Part shown: piece by piece, positions 660 through 8,590 of the stretch
Numbering within the stretch: position 1 is the stretch's first letter
How the letters are laid out: each line of letters starts with the position of its first letter
NCBI GenBank assembly: GCA_046723735.1
Contig: JBKOVB010000056.1
Location: forward strand, 14,776 to 78,775
DNA from: Actinomycetota bacterium
GTDB taxonomy: Bacteria; Actinomycetota; Actinomycetes; Mycobacteriales; SCTD01
Direction of reading: 5' to 3'
Length of the DNA stretch: 64,000 nucleotides
The notes under the pieces: generated by a model
The model's input: the letters and a program-made list of their open reading frames with translations, nothing else
Told to the model about the DNA's origin: nothing
Database searches by the model: none
Position numbers and translations under genes: made by a program

Positions 660-1270
660 CGACCTCGGAGCTCCCCGCCTCGGCGCCCGCACGCCCGCAC
701 CTGCGGGTCATCCCGGACGACGGCATCGACCTCGAGCTGGCGGAGGAAGCGGCCGGCACGCTCCTCACCGCTCTCGGTCTCGACCTCGACGACCCGGTGC
801 TCACCGGGACGCCGGGCCGGATGGTGCGCGGGCTCGCGGAGATGCTGCGCCCGAGGGAGTTCACCCTCACGACCTTTCCCAACGAGGGGTACGACGAGCT
901 GGTCCTCGCCCGGGGCATCCCGTTCGTGTCGCTGTGCGAGCACCACCTGCTGCCGTTCAGCGGGACGGCCACCGTCGCCTACCTGCCGGCGGACCGCATC
1001 CTCGGCCTGTCGAAGCTGGCTCGCGTGGTGGAGCTGTTCGCCCGTCGCCCGCAGGTGCAGGAGCGCATGACGACCCAGATCGCCGACTGGCTCACCGAGC
1101 ACCTCGAGCCGTGGGGCGTTGGCGTCGTCCTCGAGGCCGAGCACTCCTGCATGACGATGCGCGGTGTGTCCGCCCGGGGCTCCCGGACCGTGACGTCCGC
1201 CCTGCAGGGCCTGGTGCGGCACGACTCCCGCACGCGCGCCGAGTTCCTGGCGCTTGCCGGTCAGGGCTAA
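656..1270 (+). CDS. folE: GTP cyclohydrolase I (type IA)
   Basis: 204-aa ORF with the FolE hallmarks SLCEHHLLPF and EAEHSCMTMRG. ATGA overlap with the upstream membrane-protein ORF. Confidence 0.9.
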   Translation: MTTSELPASAPARPHLRVIPDDGIDLELAEEAAGTLLTALGLDLDDPVLTGTPGRMVRGLAEMLRPREFTLTTFPNEGYDELVLARGIPFVSLCEHHLLPFSGTATVAYLPADRILGLSKLARVVELFARRPQVQERMTTQIADWLTEHLEPWGVGVVLEAEHSCMTMRGVSARGSRTVTSALQGLVRHDSRTRAEFLALAGQG

Positions 1271-1509
1271 GCCGGCTCGAAGTCCCAGCCGTGGGCCCGT
1301 ACGACGGAAGCCGGTGTGCTCGTCGGCTCCTCCCAGCTCGTGGGCACGGGCCAGCGGGTGATCAGCACGACGCGGTCGTCGTCGGAGCGGAACACCTCGG
1401 CGCCGCTCGCCCCCGCCACGAGCGCCTCGGCCGCCACGGCGTGCGCCCAGGCCACGACCTCGTCGACCTTGCCCTCCTGCGCCCGGGCCTCCCACATCCG
1501 CACCCTCAC
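1267..1509 (-). CDS. small hypothetical protein (possibly ABM/ferredoxin-like fold)
   Basis: Track ORF 1267..1629 trimmed to the GTG at 1509, which forms a GTGA overlap with the tsaD stop. Product [25 protein letters not shown]...VLITRW has a natural composition, unlike the Arg-rich 5' extension. Confidence 0.5.
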
Positions 1510-2516
1510 CGGACCACCACCTCGACCGGCAGCGCGCTGTCGGCCGGCAGGTCCAACGGCGACGGCGGCGTGCCGACGGCGACGAGGCGCTCCCCCAGTG
1601 CGGCCACCATCGCGCCGTTGTCGGTGCACAGGCCCGGGCGCGGCACGCGCAGCACGATCCCCGCGGCGTCACAGCGCTCCTGCGCCAGCGCCCGCAGCCG
1701 GCTGTTCGCCGCCACCCCACCACCGATGAGCAGATGCCCGACGCCCGTGTCCCGGCAGGCGCGCACCGCCTTGGCGGTGAGCACGTCGACTACCGCCTCC
1801 TGGAAGCTCGCGCACACGTCGGCGACCGGCACCGGCCCGTCGTGCTTCTCGACCCAGCGGGCCACCGCGGTCTTGAGGCCGCTGAAGGAGACGTCGTAGG
1901 AGTCGTCGTTGATCATCCCGCGCGGGAACGGGATCGTGGCCCCGCCGTCCCGCGCCGCCTTGTCGACCACCGGCCCGCCCGGGAACCCCAGCCCCAGCAG
2001 CCGGGCGACCTTGTCGAACGCCTCCCCCGCGGCGTCGTCGACGGTCTGGCCGAGCGGCACCAGCGTCTTGGTGACGTCCTCCACGAGCAGCAGCGACGAG
2101 TGCCCCCCGGAGACCAGGAGCGCGACGGTCGGCTCGGGGAGCGGCCCGTGCTCCAGCACGTCGACGGCCACGTGGGCGGCGAGGTGGTTCACGCCGTAGA
2201 GGGGCTTGTCGAGGGCGAGGGCGTAGGCCTTCGCCGCGGCCACCCCGACGAGCAAAGCGCCGGCCAGCCCGGGGCCGCTCGTCACCGCGACGGCGTCCAG
2301 CTCGGCCAGGGTCACGCCGGCCGTGGCGAGCGCCCGCTGCACGGTCGGGACCATCGCCTCGAGATGCGCCCGCGAGGCCACCTCGGGCACCACCCCGCCG
2401 TACCGGACGTGCTCGTCGACACTGCTGGCCACCGCGTCGGCGAGCAGCACGCCGTCGCGGACGATCCCGATCCCGGTCTCGTCGCAGCTCGTCTCGATCC
2501 CCAGCACCAGCGGCAC
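1506..2516 (-). CDS. tsaD: tRNA N6-adenosine threonylcarbamoyltransferase
   Basis: Conserved N-terminus [14 protein letters not shown] and Kae1/TsaD-like sequence throughout. Start moved to the GTG at 2516; the upstream extension of the track ORF is Arg/His-rich junk. Confidence 0.9.
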
Positions 2517-2528
2517 GCCGACCAGCCT

Positions 2529-2540
2529 AGAAGGCCTTCT
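2529..2540. repeat. perfect 12-bp palindrome AGAAGGCCTTCT in the rimI-tsaD spacer (function unknown)
   Basis: Read directly from the sequence. Confidence 0.7.
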
Positions 2541-2572
2541 CCCGACCGCATGTCTCCCGAGATGTAGGTCCG

Positions 2573-2586
2573 GGCATGGCCATGCC
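2573..2586. repeat. perfect 14-bp palindrome GGCATGGCCATGCC in the rimI-tsaD spacer (function unknown)
   Basis: Read directly from the sequence. Confidence 0.7.
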
Positions 2587-2652
2587 GCCGATCCTGAGCG
2601 TGAGTGGTCCTCGCGCAAGCGGCGAGACGGCGATCTCGCAAGACAAGCAGGG

Positions 2653-3084
2653 TCAGGTGCGGGTCATCACGACGGCGTCGACGCCGCCCGGGTAGTAGCC
2701 GCGGCGCAGCCCGGTACGACGGAAGCCGTGCCGCTCGTACAACCGCTGGGCCGACGCGTTGTCGGCCCGGACCTCGAGGAGGACGGGCCTGCCGCGCGGC
2801 GCGTGCGCGAGCAGGTCCTGCAGGAGCAACGCCCCGATGCCCTTGCCCTGCTGCCCCGGTGCGACGCCGACGGTCTGCACGAAGCACTCGTCCGGGTAGA
2901 CGCACAGGCCGGCGTACCCGACCACCTCGTCGTCCTCGACCGCCACCACGTAGTGACGCGTGTCGGTCTGCCCGAGCTCGGACCAGAAGTGGTGCGCGGT
3001 CCAGGGCTCCGGCTGGAACAGCTTCTCCTCGATCGGCAGCACCTGCTCGACGTGCCACCAGCGGAAGCGCTCGATCCTCACCAC
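2653..3084 (-). CDS. rimI: ribosomal-protein-alanine N-acetyltransferase
   Basis: 143-aa GNAT ORF ([10 protein letters not shown] acetyl-CoA motif) in the conserved tsaB-rimI-tsaD context. Start is GTG at 3084 or 3081, overlapping the upstream stop (GTGGTGA). Confidence 0.85.
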
Positions 3085-3629
3085 GAGGCGGGCTCGGTCA
3101 CGGTGCGGCCGTGGCGCACGTCCACGCGGTGCAGGACGTCACCGGCCCGCAGGTGCACCTCCTGGTCCAGCACCCCGAGCCAGACTGACCCGGGCACCGC
3201 GTCGCTCTCCCACGCCAGCCCGTCCGCGTCGTAGGCCGCCAGGACGTCGTCGTCGAGCAGCAGCGCCAGCTCGCCCACCGGTTCGAAGTGCCGCACGGTC
3301 CAGCGGTCGATGCGCCACCAGCGGTCGGGGTCGCGGCTGTCGACGAGGTACGGCGGGCCGCCGGCCGCCACGAAGACCGTGTCCGGGTGCGGCCACGAGG
3401 CCACGAGGTTCAGCCGGCCGGGCAGGTTGTCCGAGGCGAACACGCCGGTCCAGACCGGGCCGCCGAGCGGGGTGATGCGCAGCCACACGCCGTCAGAGCC
3501 ACCCTCGCGACTGGCCCCGGGGTAGTAGACGACGTGGCGGGGCTGCCCGGGCAGGGTGGTGACCCGAAGCTTGTGCTCCTGGACGGCCTCCCAGCTATGC
3601 GGAAAGGCGTCCAGCCACTCCGCGCTCAT
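3078..3629 (-). CDS. hypothetical protein, Trp-rich, no family recognised
   Basis: 183-aa ORF with ordinary amino-acid composition, whereas the overlapping alternative frames are Arg/Pro/Ala junk. ATGA overlap with the tsaB stop and GTGA-type overlap with the rimI start. Confidence 0.7.
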   Translation of the reverse strand: MSAEWLDAFPHSWEAVQEHKLRVTTLPGQPRHVVYYPGASREGGSDGVWLRITPLGGPVWTGVFASDNLPGRLNLVASWPHPDTVFVAAGGPPYLVDSRDPDRWWRIDRWTVRHFEPVGELALLLDDDVLAAYDADGLAWESDAVPGSVWLGVLDQEVHLRAGDVLHRVDVRHGRTVTEPASW

Positions 3630-4213
3630 CGCGCGCTGAGCTCCACCGCGTCGGGGCGCCGCAGGTAGAGCGGGGTGAGCGGGAGCTGCTCGTGCCGCGA
3701 CGCCCGGGCAAGTGCCCCGACCTGCGGGTACCGCGGCTCGGCATCGGTCGCGAACCCGTAGAGCTGCGCCCCGTCGCCGACCACTCGCCGACCGGCCAGC
3801 GCCGCGCGGGCCTCGTCAGGCTTGGTGACGTGCGGTCCGTCGACGCGGCGGGCGTCGTCGTCGTACACCGCCCAGTAGACCTCCTTGCGACGGGCGTCGG
3901 TGACGACTCCGGTCCCGGGAGCCGCGAGGCCGTCGAGCGAGCACACGCCGACGACCGGCAGGCCGCGCGCCTCCGCAAAGGCCGCGGCCGTCACGATGCC
4001 GACCCGGAGCCCGGTGAACGGGCCGGGGCCGACGCCGACGACGACGGTGTCAGGGGTGCCCTTGGTGAGGACGGCCTGCACGTTCAGCGCGAGCAGCTCG
4101 CCGTGCCTGCGGGCGTCGATCTCGACGGCTTCGGCGACGACCGTCAGGTCGTCGAGGTCCACCAACCCGGCGGTGACGGCGGGCGTGGAGGTGTCGAGGA
4201 CGAGGGCGAGCAC
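3626..4213 (-). CDS. tsaB: tRNA threonylcarbamoyladenosine biosynthesis protein TsaB
   Basis: 195-aa ORF with N-terminus MLALVLDTSTPAVTAGLV typical of TsaB/YeaZ. Lies in the t6A gene context. Confidence 0.85.
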   Translation of the reverse strand: MLALVLDTSTPAVTAGLVDLDDLTVVAEAVEIDARRHGELLALNVQAVLTKGTPDTVVVGVGPGPFTGLRVGIVTAAAFAEARGLPVVGVCSLDGLAAPGTGVVTDARRKEVYWAVYDDDARRVDGPHVTKPDEARAALAGRRVVGDGAQLYGFATDAEPRYPQVGALARASRHEQLPLTPLYLRRPDAVELSAR

Positions 4214-4220
4214 GCCTCCG

Positions 4221-4226
4221 AGGCTA
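4221..4226 (-). promoter_or_regulatory. candidate -10 box TAGCCT, 7 nt upstream of the tsaB GTG (possible leaderless start)
   Basis: Minus-strand sequence is CGACTCCCGTC-N12-CTAGCCT-cggaggc-GTG. It matches TANNNT. The same architecture occurs upstream of pepN. Confidence 0.3.
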
Positions 4227-4239
4227 GTCGCGCGGGCCC

Positions 4240-4290
4240 GACGGGAGTCGCGTCACGCCCCGTCCCGCGGCGCGCGAACGGGGCGGCGCA
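4240..4290. repeat. copy A (right arm missing) of the 62-nt nested palindromic element; its inner hairpin is a likely terminator of the acyl-CoA synthetase gene
   Basis: GACGGGAGTCG-cgtc-aCGCCCCGT-(14 nt)-ACGGGGCGg. Arm positions and spacing are identical to the copy at 16870..16931. Confidence 0.6.
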
Positions 4291-4294
4291 CACG

Positions 4295-5833
4295 TCAGAC
4301 CGGGGGCTTGGCGTCCGCCAGCTCGCGCAGGACGTTCTTGGCGACCTTCTCGAGGGTGGCGCGGGGGAACTCCTCGACGACGTACACCGCCCGGGGCACC
4401 TTGAAGTCCGCAAGGTTCGCCGCGCACGCCTCGATGATCTGCTTCTCGAAGACGCTGTCGTCGGGCTCCGCGCCCGGGCCCTTGATGACGAACGCGACCG
4501 GCACCATCGACAGCCACTCGTGCTGCTTGCCCACGACGGCGATCTCCGCGATGCCCGGCACCGTGCGGCACATGTCCTCGACCTCGCGGGCGCTGACGTT
4601 CTCACCGCCGACCTTGATGAGGTCCTTGTCGCGGTCGGTGTAGACGACGTTGCCGCCCTCGACGACCTTGACCATGTCGCCTGTCTTGAACCAGCCGTCC
4701 TCGGTGAACGAGGCGGCGTTCGCCTCGGGGTTGTCGAAGTACTCAAGGAAGAGCTGCACGCCGCGGGTGCCCCGCACCCACAGCTCGCCGGTCTCGCCCT
4801 GGGCGACCGGCTCGCCGGTCTCCTTCGACACGACCAGGCACTCGTAGCCCGGCGTGGGGTGCCCCATCGACATCCGCGGCCAGCCCTCCTGGGGCCGACC
4901 GGTGATCGCGTGCGTCACCGTCTCGGTCATCCCGTAGGCGGCGTAGACCCGCAACCCGAGCCAGGCGTCCACCTCGGGCATGATCATTCCGAAGACGCCG
5001 GCGCGGATCGAGTGCTCCTTCGGCGCCTCAGGCAGCTGGAACGCGCTGAACACGAACGGCATCAGCGAGATGTGCGTGACCTGGTGCTTCTGCACGACCG
5101 GCCAGAACCCGGACGTCGACCACTTCGGGGTCAGCACGACGGTGGCGCCGACGCCGAGCACCGCCCAGATCGACCAGCTCTGCGCGTTGACGTGGAAGAA
5201 CGGCAGGTAGACGAGGTAGATGTCGTCGCCGTTCAGGTCGACGTTCCGCGGGCCGATCCGGCCCGCCCAGACGGCGTTCGCGTGCGTGTGCACGACAGCC
5301 TTCGGCTTCGACGTGGTGCCGCTGGTGAAGAGGATCCCGGCGGGCAGCATCGGCTCGGGCTCGCGGGTCGGAGCGGCGTCGGCGTCGCCGTACAGCATCT
5401 CGAGCTCGTCGGTCGTCACGATCCAGCGCAGCTGCGGTCCCGCCTCGCGCACCAGGTCCGCGTACGACGGCTGCACGACCGCCGCAACGCACTGCGCCTT
5501 CTCGACGAAGTAGCCGACCTCGGCCGCGACCGAGCGCGTGTTGGTCGTGACGCCGACCGCGCCGATCCAGGCGCAGGCGTACCACCCGAGCACCGCCTCC
5601 GGGCAGTTGTCCGCGTGGATCAGGACCTTGTCGCCCTTGGCGATGCCACGCGCGACGAACCCGGCCGCGAGCCGCTTCACGTCGGTGAGGAACGCGGCGT
5701 AGGTCCAGCTGCGGCCCTCGCCCTCGCGCGGCTCCCACACGAGGAACGGGTGGTCGGGCTTGACGGTCGCCCAGTGGGTGAGCAGCCAGGGGATGTCCTG
5801 GCCCTGCATCTGGAGCGCGGCGACGTCGGCCAT
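4295..5833 (-). CDS. AMP-dependent acyl-CoA synthetase/ligase
   Basis: AMP-binding motif ILFTSGTTSKPKAVVHTH, plus GYGMTET-like and GDxV motifs. Start set to the ATG at 5833, preceded by AAAGGA 8 nt upstream. Confidence 0.85.
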   Translation of the reverse strand: MADVAALQMQGQDIPWLLTHWATVKPDHPFLVWEPREGEGRSWTYAAFLTDVKRLAAGFVARGIAKGDKVLIHADNCPEAVLGWYACAWIGAVGVTTNTRSVAAEVGYFVEKAQCVAAVVQPSYADLVREAGPQLRWIVTTDELEMLYGDADAAPTREPEPMLPAGILFTSGTTSKPKAVVHTHANAVWAGRIGPRNVDLNGDDIYLVYLPFFHVNAQSWSIWAVLGVGATVVLTPKWSTSGFWPVVQKHQVTHISLMPFVFSAFQLPEAPKEHSIRAGVFGMIMPEVDAWLGLRVYAAYGMTETVTHAITGRPQEGWPRMSMGHPTPGYECLVVSKETGEPVAQGETGELWVRGTRGVQLFLEYFDNPEANAASFTEDGWFKTGDMVKVVEGGNVVYTDRDKDLIKVGGENVSAREVEDMCRTVPGIAEIAVVGKQHEWLSMVPVAFVIKGPGAEPDDSVFEKQIIEACAANLADFKVPRAVYVVEEFPRATLEKVAKNVLRELADAKPPV

Positions 5834-5857
5834 GGGCGGGTCCTTTCGGAGCAGAAC

Positions 5858-5871
5858 TGAAACGTGTTCTA
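5858..5871. promoter_or_regulatory. KstR-type (TetR family) operator-like palindrome TAGAACACGTTTCA
   Basis: Matches the published KstR consensus TnnAACnnGTTnnA at all 8 fixed positions. It ends 24 nt upstream of the acyl-CoA synthetase ATG. Confidence 0.4.
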
Positions 5872-5920
5872 CACCATCAGTAACTCCGGCGACCACCCCG
5901 CGACCACTTCACCCCGCTGT

Positions 5921-6009: not shown

Positions 6010-7539
<1,530 letters not shown>

Positions 7540-7607
7540 AGATGCTCCTCGATGCTCGGTGTGACGGCGCCGAGTCTTCCCTGCCGTGCCGTCGCTGGCC
7601 AAGGGTC

Positions 7608-8045
7608 CTACACCCTCCACCGTGGGCCGACACCGGTCACCGTCACGACGCGTACGTCGTCGTCCCGCCGGTCGACCCGCACGTCGAGGTGGCTCTCCGC
7701 GAGCTGCTCCACGACTCCGTCGCCCCACTCGACGACGACGACGGCCCGGTCGAGCTCTTCGTCGATCTCGAGGTCGTCGAGATCCAGGCGGCCGCTGTCG
7801 CGCAGCCGGTAGGCGTCCACGTGCACCAGCGGCAGCGGTCCCGGGTGCACCCGCGCGATGACGAACGTCGGGCTGGTCACCCGCCCCCGCACGCCCAAGC
7901 CCTCGCCGATCCCCTGCGTGAGAGCGGTCTTGCCCGCGCCGAGCGGGCCGCTGAGGACGACCAGGTCGCCGGCCCGCAGCGTCGTGGCCAGCTCACGCCC
8001 GAACGCCCGGGTGTCCTCCACGCTGGGCAGCACCCGCGTCGTCAC
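7608..8045 (-). CDS. tsaE: tRNA t6A ATPase TsaE
   Basis: Walker A motif LSGPLGAGKT and the TSPTF motif. Start at the GTG at 8045, forming a GTGA overlap with the upstream stop. Confidence 0.85.
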   Translation of the reverse strand: MTTRVLPSVEDTRAFGRELATTLRAGDLVVLSGPLGAGKTALTQGIGEGLGVRGRVTSPTFVIARVHPGPLPLVHVDAYRLRDSGRLDLDDLEIDEELDRAVVVVEWGDGVVEQLAESHLDVRVDRRDDDVRVVTVTGVGPRWRV

Positions 8046-8590
8046 GACGCGAGCTCCACCGCCGCGCGCAGGTCCTCGCGCAGCAGCCGCATCGGCTCGC
8101 CCTGCGGACCGCCGCGCAGCGCCGCCGCCGGGTGGTACGTCGGAAGCACCCGCCTCCCGTCCACCTCGTGCACCCGGCCTCGGACCTCGGCCAGCGTCAC
8201 GGACCCCAGGAACCACCGGGTGGCTGACAGACCCAGAGGTACGACGACAGCCGCCTCCACCTGCGCCAGCTGGGCCTTGAGCCACGGTCGGCACGAGGAC
8301 GTCTCGACACGGCTCGGGACCCGGTTGCCCGGCGGTCGGCACTTCACGGTGTTGAGCACCGCCACGTCAGGGCGCGGCATCCCGGCCTCGGCCAGCAGCC
8401 GGTCGAGCAGCTGGCCGGAGCGGCCGACGAAGGGCACACCGTGCGCGTCCTCCTGCGCGCCGGGCGCCTCACCGACGACGAGCAGCCGCGCGGCGGGAGG
8501 GGTCTGGCCCACGACGACCTGGGTGCGCGTGGACGCGAGCCCGGGGCAGCGTGTGCACCCCTGCATCGCGGCGGAGAGCGGCGTCGTCAT
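8042..8590 (-). CDS. uracil-DNA glycosylase, family 4 (Fe-S type)
   Basis: 182-aa product with the GEAPG motif, N-terminal CTRC, and later Cys residues (VKCRPP, SSCRPW). Its ATG forms an ATGA overlap with the hydrolase stop. Confidence 0.85.
   Translation of the reverse strand: MTTPLSAAMQGCTRCPGLASTRTQVVVGQTPPAARLLVVGEAPGAQEDAHGVPFVGRSGQLLDRLLAEAGMPRPDVAVLNTVKCRPPGNRVPSRVETSSCRPWLKAQLAQVEAAVVVPLGLSATRWFLGSVTLAEVRGRVHEVDGRRVLPTYHPAAALRGGPQGEPMRLLREDLRAAVELAS

Follow-up and report, generated by a model that had tools for sequence, protein, structure and literature searches.

A putative RHS-toxin immunity homologue, orphaned or exapted, between tsaB and rimI in an uncultured actinobacterial lineage

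What is an unrecognized gene doing inside an essential tRNA modification operon? We examined this question in a 64,000-nucleotide stretch of DNA, here called the window, from an Actinomycetota bacterium assigned to the Mycobacteriales (assembly GCA_046723735.1, contig JBKOVB010000056.1, positions 14,776 to 78,775 of the forward strand). In this window, an open reading frame (ORF) of 183 codons, here called gene X, lies between tsaB and rimI in an operon for N6-threonylcarbamoyladenosine (t6A) synthesis. Our analysis indicates that X very probably descends from a family of immunity proteins encoded directly behind rearrangement hotspot (RHS) toxins. X is thus best described as an immunity-family protein that has been either orphaned or exapted.

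Gene X as a conserved gene of one actinobacterial lineage

A preliminary description of this locus, made from the sequence alone, had reported a Trp-rich ORF with no transmembrane segment or signal peptide whose start overlaps the tsaB stop in ATGA and whose stop overlaps the rimI start in GTGGTGA. All of these features are borne out by the ORF listing, the sequence itself, and a hydropathy scan. The elements concerned are as follows.

3078..3629, minus strand: gene X, ATG start, 183 residues, taken from the ORF listing
3626..3629, minus strand: ATGA junction, the ATG of X over the TGA of tsaB (TCAT on the plus strand)
3078..3084, minus strand: GTGGTGA junction, the GTG of rimI over the last Trp codon and the TGA of X (TCACCAC on the plus strand)
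3626..4213, minus strand: tsaB, dimerization subunit of the t6A complex, immediately upstream of X (TIGR03725, 1.2e-41; PF00814)
2653..3084, minus strand: rimI, N-alpha-acetyltransferase of the GCN5-related (GNAT) type, immediately downstream of X (TIGR01575, 1.3e-32; PF00583)

The translation of X, which includes ..WWRIDRWTVRHFEP.. and ..LAWESD.. in the ORF listing, contains 11 Trp residues (6.0%) and is acidic, with an isoelectric point (pI) of 5.0. No transmembrane-like segment is present, the maximum 19-residue Kyte–Doolittle value being 0.88, and the N-terminus shows no signal peptide, lipobox, or hydrophobic stretch.

In high-GC DNA, long spurious open frames arise in every phase. Many such frames are listed around X, and X itself could in principle be a chance open frame or a decaying, untranslated insertion. 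However, the G+C content of the X frame at codon positions 1/2/3 is 0.76/0.49/0.95. The third-position value (GC3) resembles those of tsaB (0.92), rimI (0.97), and the nearby tsaD (0.97), and it is confined to the X frame, as three alternative ORFs overlapping X have GC3 values of 0.49–0.73. Pairwise ratios of nonsynonymous to synonymous substitution (dN/dS) between X and seven relatives are 0.20–0.34; the same measure gives 0.21–0.62 for TsaB, 0.30–0.44 for RimI, and 0.13–0.23 for TsaD. In addition, the length and sequence of X are kept over 45 species-level genomes, its start and stop overlaps are kept in relatives, and its AlphaFold2 fold, described below, is confident. The chance-frame explanation is refuted as far as computation allows, and we consider its probability to be vanishingly small. 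The host-like GC3, the dN/dS values, and the confident fold together establish X as a real, selected gene, and the purifying selection implies that it has a function. By these measures, X is a translated, vertically inherited gene for a predicted cytoplasmic all-β protein.

We then asked how widely X is distributed. A protein collection clustered at 90% identity contains 179 homologues of X at E ≤ 1e-3. The best 120 of these are 61–100% identical to X, and all that carry a name from their source are called "hypothetical protein". When a single genome from each GTDB species was scanned, 45 X loci were recovered, all from uncultured metagenome-assembled genomes and none from an isolate; the scan used patterns drawn from the clade alignment, and strongly diverged copies in cultured organisms could have escaped it. 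The carriers are labeled Frankiales, Frankiaceae, Frankineae, Mycobacteriales, or more broadly Actinomycetota, Actinomycetes, or Actinomycetales, and one only "uncultured bacterium". The phylogenetic profiling that had been proposed therefore places X in one uncultured actinobacterial lineage; the Propionibacteriales, named at the time as a profiling target, do not appear among the carrier labels.

Using the window proteins as tblastn queries, we found rimI directly after X in every locus with enough contig and tsaD next in most loci. On the other side of X, tsaB is present upstream in all loci whose contig extends that far. The same tsaB–X–rimI arrangement is present at the deepest member, P0126 (47% identity). 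The 4-nucleotide overlap between tsaB and X recurs in 32 of 47 related loci and is also seen in independent gene calls for L001–L003. X and rimI overlap in 34 of 49 loci, by 7 nucleotides in 21 and by 4 nucleotides in 13. The remaining junctions have gaps of 4–26 nucleotides, except for two with assembly or alignment artefacts. Because these stop/start overlaps are found at both ends of X and recur among relatives, we infer that X is co-expressed with TsaB and RimI, and the earlier suggestion of co-translation with the operon appears sound. In a sub-lineage comprising L021, L023, L036, and L040, a protein of approximately 230 residues with an N-terminal signal peptide is inserted between tsaB and X. 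The insertion breaks the tsaB–X coupling and leaves the X–rimI adjacency intact.

L023, 4054-4941: signal-peptide insert
L036, 4177-4935: signal-peptide insert
L040, 733-1446: signal-peptide insert
L021, approximately 1240-2000: signal-peptide insert

Distances among X sequences correlate with those of TsaD, TsaB, and RimI at r of approximately 0.7 each, as expected for vertical descent. With a mean distance of 0.38, X is less diverged than TsaB (0.54); the value for RimI is 0.36. The X clade displays many invariant residues and a conserved C-terminal tail of 11 residues. Synonymous variation in the codons that precede the final TGGTGA indicates that this tail is conserved at the protein level. 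In Mycobacterium tuberculosis, tsaB is followed directly by rimI (PMC5335608), in agreement with the statement in the preliminary description that this is the normal order, and X is accordingly a lineage-specific insertion. One copy entered the ancestor of this uncultured Frankiales/Mycobacteriales lineage, between tsaB and rimI, gained stop/start overlaps at both ends, and has stayed there since.

Apparent X–RimI fusions (P0127, P0129, P0138, P0146, and P0262) were considered as Rosetta-stone evidence and rejected as frameshifted or chimeric metagenome gene calls.

A protein family linked to RHS toxins

To what is X related? No match to X was found in Pfam or NCBIfam at E ≤ 1, libraries in which its neighbors match TsaB, TsaD, and TsaE strongly, and none was found in PADLOC or PHROGs. 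By contrast with these curated collections, phmmer, run exhaustively against 1.84 billion representatives clustered at 50% identity, returned 374 matches at E ≤ 1e-3, 77 of them at E ≤ 1e-10. Only 6 representative clusters reach E ≤ 1e-30, so that X belongs to a narrow clade within a broad family. The family members are mostly 180–195 residues long and 25–40% identical to X, and a hidden Markov model (HMM) built from 100 distant members matches X at 3e-36. The motifs YYPGA..GG.DG, W.G.FA, G.GY.V, and A.G..G..W are common to X and the family. Across the whole X clade, the N-terminal and middle motifs are kept, the family motif LSWDG is replaced, and G.AWD is deleted.

The family as a whole has escaped curation. 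Fifty members had no consistent match in Pfam, with one showing a weak match to PQQ_2 (0.017), and three members had no meaningful match in NCBIfam. Searches with X and three members yielded only a sub-threshold SduA match in PADLOC (E 0.043, for P0252) and nothing in PHROGs, and a PDB sequence search with the family profile returned only noise (best E 0.1). The earlier remark that X carries no recognizable motif thus holds for curated families, but X does belong to a broad, uncurated family of proteins of approximately 190 residues.

The genomic contexts of approximately 86 family members outside the X clade, obtained from look-ups and a metagenome scan, reveal a recurring association. The gene for P0135, which X matches by phmmer at E 7e-17, begins at the final base of the stop codon for a 2152-residue RHS protein. 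P0270 lies 17 nucleotides behind another RHS protein, which is longer than 1993 residues and contains SpvB, TcdB_midN, and FG-GAP domains. The C-termini of these two RHS proteins share a domain of approximately 90 residues (blastp 1e-10), and the proteins otherwise differ. With an iterated HMM, we located this putative toxin domain −3 to 26 nucleotides upstream of a family gene in 15 loci; in these, the domain is always followed by an X-family member within 26 nucleotides. Where sequence suffices, the upstream proteins carry RHS Pfam repeats.

L004, 5664-5975: toxin domain
L053, 6729-6998: toxin domain
L063, 6179-6451: toxin domain
L080, 1610-1921: toxin domain
L066–L068, L071, L072, L075, L081, L083, L084, L086, and L099: toxin domain in the 11 further loci

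The last 20 or so residues of the toxin domain remain before orphan copies of the family gene in L055–L057 and L065, and the array that contains P0315 includes RHS fragments together with genes for DUF1963 and DUF2019. With 15 loci plus remnants among the approximately 86 contexts, the domain is frequent in soil metagenomes. It is defined by the motif FHNFP ... G.[YF]E[IF]G ... H[RWY]FF.P, with invariant His, Glu, and His residues, and has no match in Pfam, in NCBIfam (searched with individual sequences), or among PDB sequences (single and profile searches). We take the His/Glu/His pattern to resemble that of metal-independent nucleases of the RNase T1/barnase type, a likeness that Pfam, NCBIfam, and PDB do not support, and that the domain might be a nuclease is a guess. 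The toxin-linked contigs have a G+C content of 46–65% and the X-clade contigs one of 70–76%; no toxin-linked member was seen in contigs above 65%. Among the toxin-linked contigs, L004 carries Gram-negative markers (PEP-CTERM, LptD, OEP), and such markers also occur on contigs of other family members outside the X clade. Acidity is kept in both groups, with a median pI of 5.2 in toxin-linked members and 5.0 in the X clade.

Since family members lie directly behind RHS proteins that share one toxin domain, they are placed as immunity genes would be. Together, the domain and the X-family protein form a putative toxin–immunity pair that is absent from Pfam and NCBIfam. We consider it very probable that X descends from this RHS-toxin immunity family, and such kinship indicates an origin unrelated to tRNA modification. 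The preliminary description had held that confident homology to a well-characterized family unrelated to tRNA modification would speak against its view of X. The homology found here comes close to this, as it is confident and points away from tRNA modification, but the family is itself uncharacterized.

The structural models agree with this kinship. AlphaFold2, supplied with a 50-sequence alignment, predicts an all-β structure of 17 strands for X with a predicted local distance difference test score (pLDDT) of 94.1 and a predicted template modeling score (pTM) of 0.88. The model of the toxin-linked P0135 (pLDDT 96.2) has 17 strands in the same order. As modeled, X would consist of about four β-propeller-type blades. 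A Foldseek search of the PDB with X gave BamB as the best match (3q7m and 3p1l; E of approximately 1e-4), with a query-normalized TM-score (TMq) of 0.51–0.53 over approximately 150 residues and a target-normalized score (TMt) of 0.30. Lower matches include WD40 proteins, PROPPINs, and AztD, and a BFVD search gives the same kind. The P0135 model retrieved only generic propellers from the PDB, TMq was at most 0.53 across the searches with either model, and no solved structure in the PDB or viral model in BFVD covers the whole of X. Half of an eight-bladed propeller superposes on X with a root-mean-square deviation of approximately 5 Å, whereas four- and five-bladed proteins give 12–14 Å, suggesting that X would form an open arc and not a closed ring. 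The Foldseek analysis of an AlphaFold model suggested previously thus yielded a confident model, but only generic matches, with BamB at their head.

The rank of BamB (best E 6e-5), together with the weak PQQ_2 match in one family member, could mean that X is a BamB/PQQ-type β-propeller assembly factor or enzyme. X does have a blade architecture in common with BamB and with PQQ/WD40-type propellers. However, only about half of such a propeller aligns, and X is half the size of BamB, with about four blades instead of eight. The sequence identity is 18% and TMt is low, X has no sequence-family match, and the Foldseek matches are generic to any propeller. Moreover, X lacks a signal peptide or lipobox, and its host, as a Gram-positive actinobacterium, offers no outer-membrane context. 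We rejected this identity on the basis of size and localization signals and regard it as very improbable.

Immunity proteins of RHS and other polymorphic toxins (RhsI-type) were catalogued by Zhang et al. in 2012 (PMC3482391), and in that census the propeller fold class was reported absent from immunity proteins (PMC3482391). X resembles the catalogued systems in its homology to a family whose genes come immediately after those of RHS proteins sharing a variable C-terminal toxin domain. The proteins of this family are likewise small, acidic, cytoplasmic, and without an enzymatic motif; some are encoded in arrays of orphan cassettes, and some follow the remains of a toxin 3′ end. X differs from them in having no toxin partner nearby, in its location inside an essential housekeeping operon, in its slow evolution and strict synteny, and in its lack of two family motifs; its family, in turn, differs in its propeller-like fold and in lying outside Pfam and NCBIfam.

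Two further observations concern the family at large. P0132 (371 residues), P0214 (522 residues), and P0267 (703 residues) are C-terminally fused to domains without a Pfam match; tandem fusions are frequent among immunity proteins. The distant member P0252 (L007, 2142-4516, and the corresponding ENA contig) lies 266 nucleotides downstream of an RVT_1 reverse transcriptase gene, with a 72-residue ORF in between and DUF6615 and an S24 peptidase nearby, and this neighborhood may be a defense island.

The present role of X

Immunity proteins act through tight one-to-one binding, and X, like its relatives, would be a tight one-to-one protein binder or blocker. The explanation that we favor for its present position is exaptation from the immunity family to an endogenous partner in this lineage. 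Through translational coupling, X would be made in fixed proportion with TsaB and RimI. It would no longer guard against a fast-changing toxin and would instead bind a conserved partner of the cell. RimI is the more likely partner, because the X–rimI adjacency is never broken and the tsaB–X adjacency is broken in one sub-lineage. We hold exaptation tentatively, as a possibility that falls a little short of an even chance.

Several lines of evidence argue for exaptation. HMM searches of the 64-kb window and of approximately 50 clade loci detected neither the toxin domain nor another member of the family, and the gene upstream of X is tsaB, not a cognate toxin gene. Toxin-linked members are unseen above 65% G+C, a value below the range of the clade contigs. 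The X clade has lost LSWDG and G.AWD and has gained its own invariant residues and C-terminal tail. The overlaps on both sides of X are conserved, and its adjacency to rimI is unbroken. Finally, X evolves slowly and vertically, unlike characterized orphan immunity genes, which are described as rapidly evolving (PMC12247911).

A related pattern is seen elsewhere in the family. Toxin-free members are found 21 nucleotides after gltX (L085, L087, and L089), and other toxin-free members lie between an RDD-family gene and relA/spoT (L070, L076, and L077) or after the pyruvate kinase gene pyk (L138–L140). These housekeeping-embedded relatives belong to other phyla, and the examples below are on contigs of 56–65% G+C.

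L089, 5364-7549: family member after gltX
L077, 5892-9891: family member between the RDD-family gene and relA/spoT
L138, 5160-7432: family member after pyk

In a rough neighbor-joining tree without support values, the toxin-linked members are scattered across the family. The X clade, the gltX/relA group, and the pyk group form separate clusters in this tree, which suggests that family genes passed from toxin loci to housekeeping loci several times independently.

These relatives also bear on the main rival explanation, in which X is a retained orphan immunity protein that still blocks an RHS-type toxin, either incoming or encoded elsewhere in the genome. Family members behind gltX, before relA/spoT, and after pyk would fit the parking of orphans in core operons. 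An essential, constitutively expressed operon would guarantee a permanent supply of X. Once overlapping codons lock a gene into such an operon, its loss becomes difficult, and its location is then a poor guide to function. X is homologous over its full length to toxin-linked members, has the same fold, and has kept their acidic pI, and the toxin domain is common in soil metagenomes. Orphan immunity proteins acting against non-self effectors are established, with examples in Serratia Rhs systems (PMC10539506) and in the rAID arrays of Bacteroidales (PMC12247911). X is likewise an immunity-family gene without a cognate effector in its locus, and it could protect against non-self toxins.

Other evidence sets X apart from such orphans. 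Those described are fast-evolving and located in variable arrays or islands, whereas X stands alone as one gene that is translationally coupled to its neighbors tsaB and rimI. It has been kept in place over approximately 45 species with a dN/dS like that of its neighbors, and this slow evolution and strict synteny are unlike the pattern of an arms race (PMC12247911). The window and the approximately 50 clade loci contain no toxin of this type, and two motifs with strong conservation among toxin-linked members are missing from X. The toxin-linked contigs are all of lower G+C content, one of them has Gram-negative markers, and delivery of such a toxin into an actinobacterium would be conjectural. 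We therefore consider retained immunity somewhat unlikely, though it carries appreciable weight.

Exaptation, for its part, has to contend with several opposing points. It is gene position that gives the family its putative immunity role, and it is likewise gene position that links X to t6A synthesis or RimI. X is not homologous to any t6A subunit family, and its conserved operon linkage with tsaB and tsaD is found in one lineage only. The tie to the t6A machinery drawn in the preliminary description therefore stands as far as the location of X inside the t6A/rimI operon, but no functional tie beyond this was found. To our knowledge, the t6A and RimI systems of all other bacteria work without an X-like protein. 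A mirror-tree comparison of X with RimI, TsaB, and TsaD singled out none of the three (partial r of 0.33–0.40), with neither RimI (0.34) nor TsaB (0.40) standing out. Overlapping codons in an essential operon hinder clean deletion, which makes synteny weak evidence for function. In addition, the embedding of relatives beside gltX, relA/spoT, and pyk makes a single explanation by orphan parking, behind constitutively expressed genes, more economical than a series of separate exaptations.

Within exaptation, a bolder version is that the antidote has become a lineage-specific accessory subunit, either as an adaptor or regulator of RimI or as a fifth partner with TsaB–TsaD–TsaE; alternatively, the toxin may target tRNA or translation. 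The WD40 protein Hat2 serves the GNAT enzyme Hat1 as a substrate adaptor or regulator. A toxin that attacks tRNA or translation would explain why orphan members are repeatedly found beside tRNA-linked genes (tsaB/tsaD, gltX, and relA/spoT). We regard these proposals as speculative and unlikely.

X could also inhibit or regulate another endogenous protein, such as a ribonuclease, that is unrelated to the operon, its position then being a historical accident. Immunity-type proteins are binders by trade, and purifying selection implies that X has some function. If the His/Glu/His toxin were nuclease-like, the family would presumably consist of barstar-like inhibitors. However, the nuclease idea is without support from Pfam, NCBIfam, or PDB, there is no candidate target, and the overlaps on both sides of X in most loci argue for selected co-expression with its neighbors. 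This explanation is, in our estimation, quite unlikely.

Exaptation of X, if it has occurred, would provide a clear example from bacteria of an essential housekeeping operon taking in a conflict-system protein, and it would hint at extra control on RimI or t6A synthesis in widespread uncultured soil actinobacteria. Whatever X does, the analysis defines a putative pair, lacking from Pfam and NCBIfam, of an RHS C-terminal toxin domain of approximately 90 residues and a propeller-like immunity protein of approximately 190 residues, and genes of the immunity family have come to lie next to housekeeping genes in three or more distinct clades. As a conserved hypothetical protein, X is ordinary; it is unusual in its conflict-system ancestry, in its fixed and coupled position across a lineage, and in belonging to a pair absent from curated libraries. 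The practical value is modest: antibacterial targeting of TsaB and TsaE is under discussion, and a partner confined to one lineage would be relevant only to the organisms that carry it.

The surrounding operon

The other operon genes of the window are listed below.

1506..2516, minus strand (listed ORF to 2618): tsaD (TIGR03723, 3.7e-122, residues 38-344)
7608..8066, minus strand (listed ORF 7608..8342, 244 residues): tsaE (TIGR00150, 4.3e-25; PF02367)
4295..5896, minus strand: AMP-binding gene of the acyl-CoA ligase type (PF00501/PF13193)
6010..7728, minus strand: second AMP-binding gene of the same type (PF00501/PF13193)

Two of these starts differ from those in the ORF listing. Because the TIGR03723 match begins at residue 38, the true start of tsaD is likely a GTG near 2516, and because the family match of tsaE covers residues 106-237 of 244, its true start is probably near 8066.

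All four genes of the tsaE–tsaB–rimI–tsaD cluster named in the preliminary description are present, but tsaE does not adjoin tsaB. The two acyl-CoA ligase genes intervene as a lineage-specific operon insertion; in the relative L003, the same interval holds one AMP-binding gene and a 143-residue ORF. Farther upstream of X, the same strand carries the two AMP-binding ligases, an alpha/beta hydrolase, alr, nnr, glmS, and pepN, giving the order nnr-alr-hydrolase-tsaE-...-tsaB-X-rimI-tsaD. The M. tuberculosis operon alr-tsaE-tsaB-rimI-tsaD(-groES-groEL1) runs from alr to tsaD with consecutive 4-bp stop/start overlaps (PMC5335608). The window shares this gene order and 4-bp overlaps, and it differs in having X between tsaB and rimI and the acyl-CoA ligase genes between tsaE and tsaB.

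A few smaller features of the region were recorded. No RNA family matched at the Rfam gathering threshold on either strand of the whole window (1-64000). The groES–groEL genes, which follow tsaD in the relatives L001 and L003, are absent at this place in the window. Directly 3′ of tsaD lies a 120-residue ORF (1267-1629, minus strand) with a GC3 of 0.80 and no Pfam match at 1e-5. A scan of positions 1400-4400 for sigma-70 promoters and terminators found none, and such a scan carries no information in high-GC actinobacteria. A spacer of approximately 137 nucleotides separates the end of rimI from the likely start of tsaD (2516-2653, minus strand), in contrast to the overlapping junctions found elsewhere in the operon; for M. 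tuberculosis, a strong promoter of tsaD has been placed inside rimI (PMC5335608).

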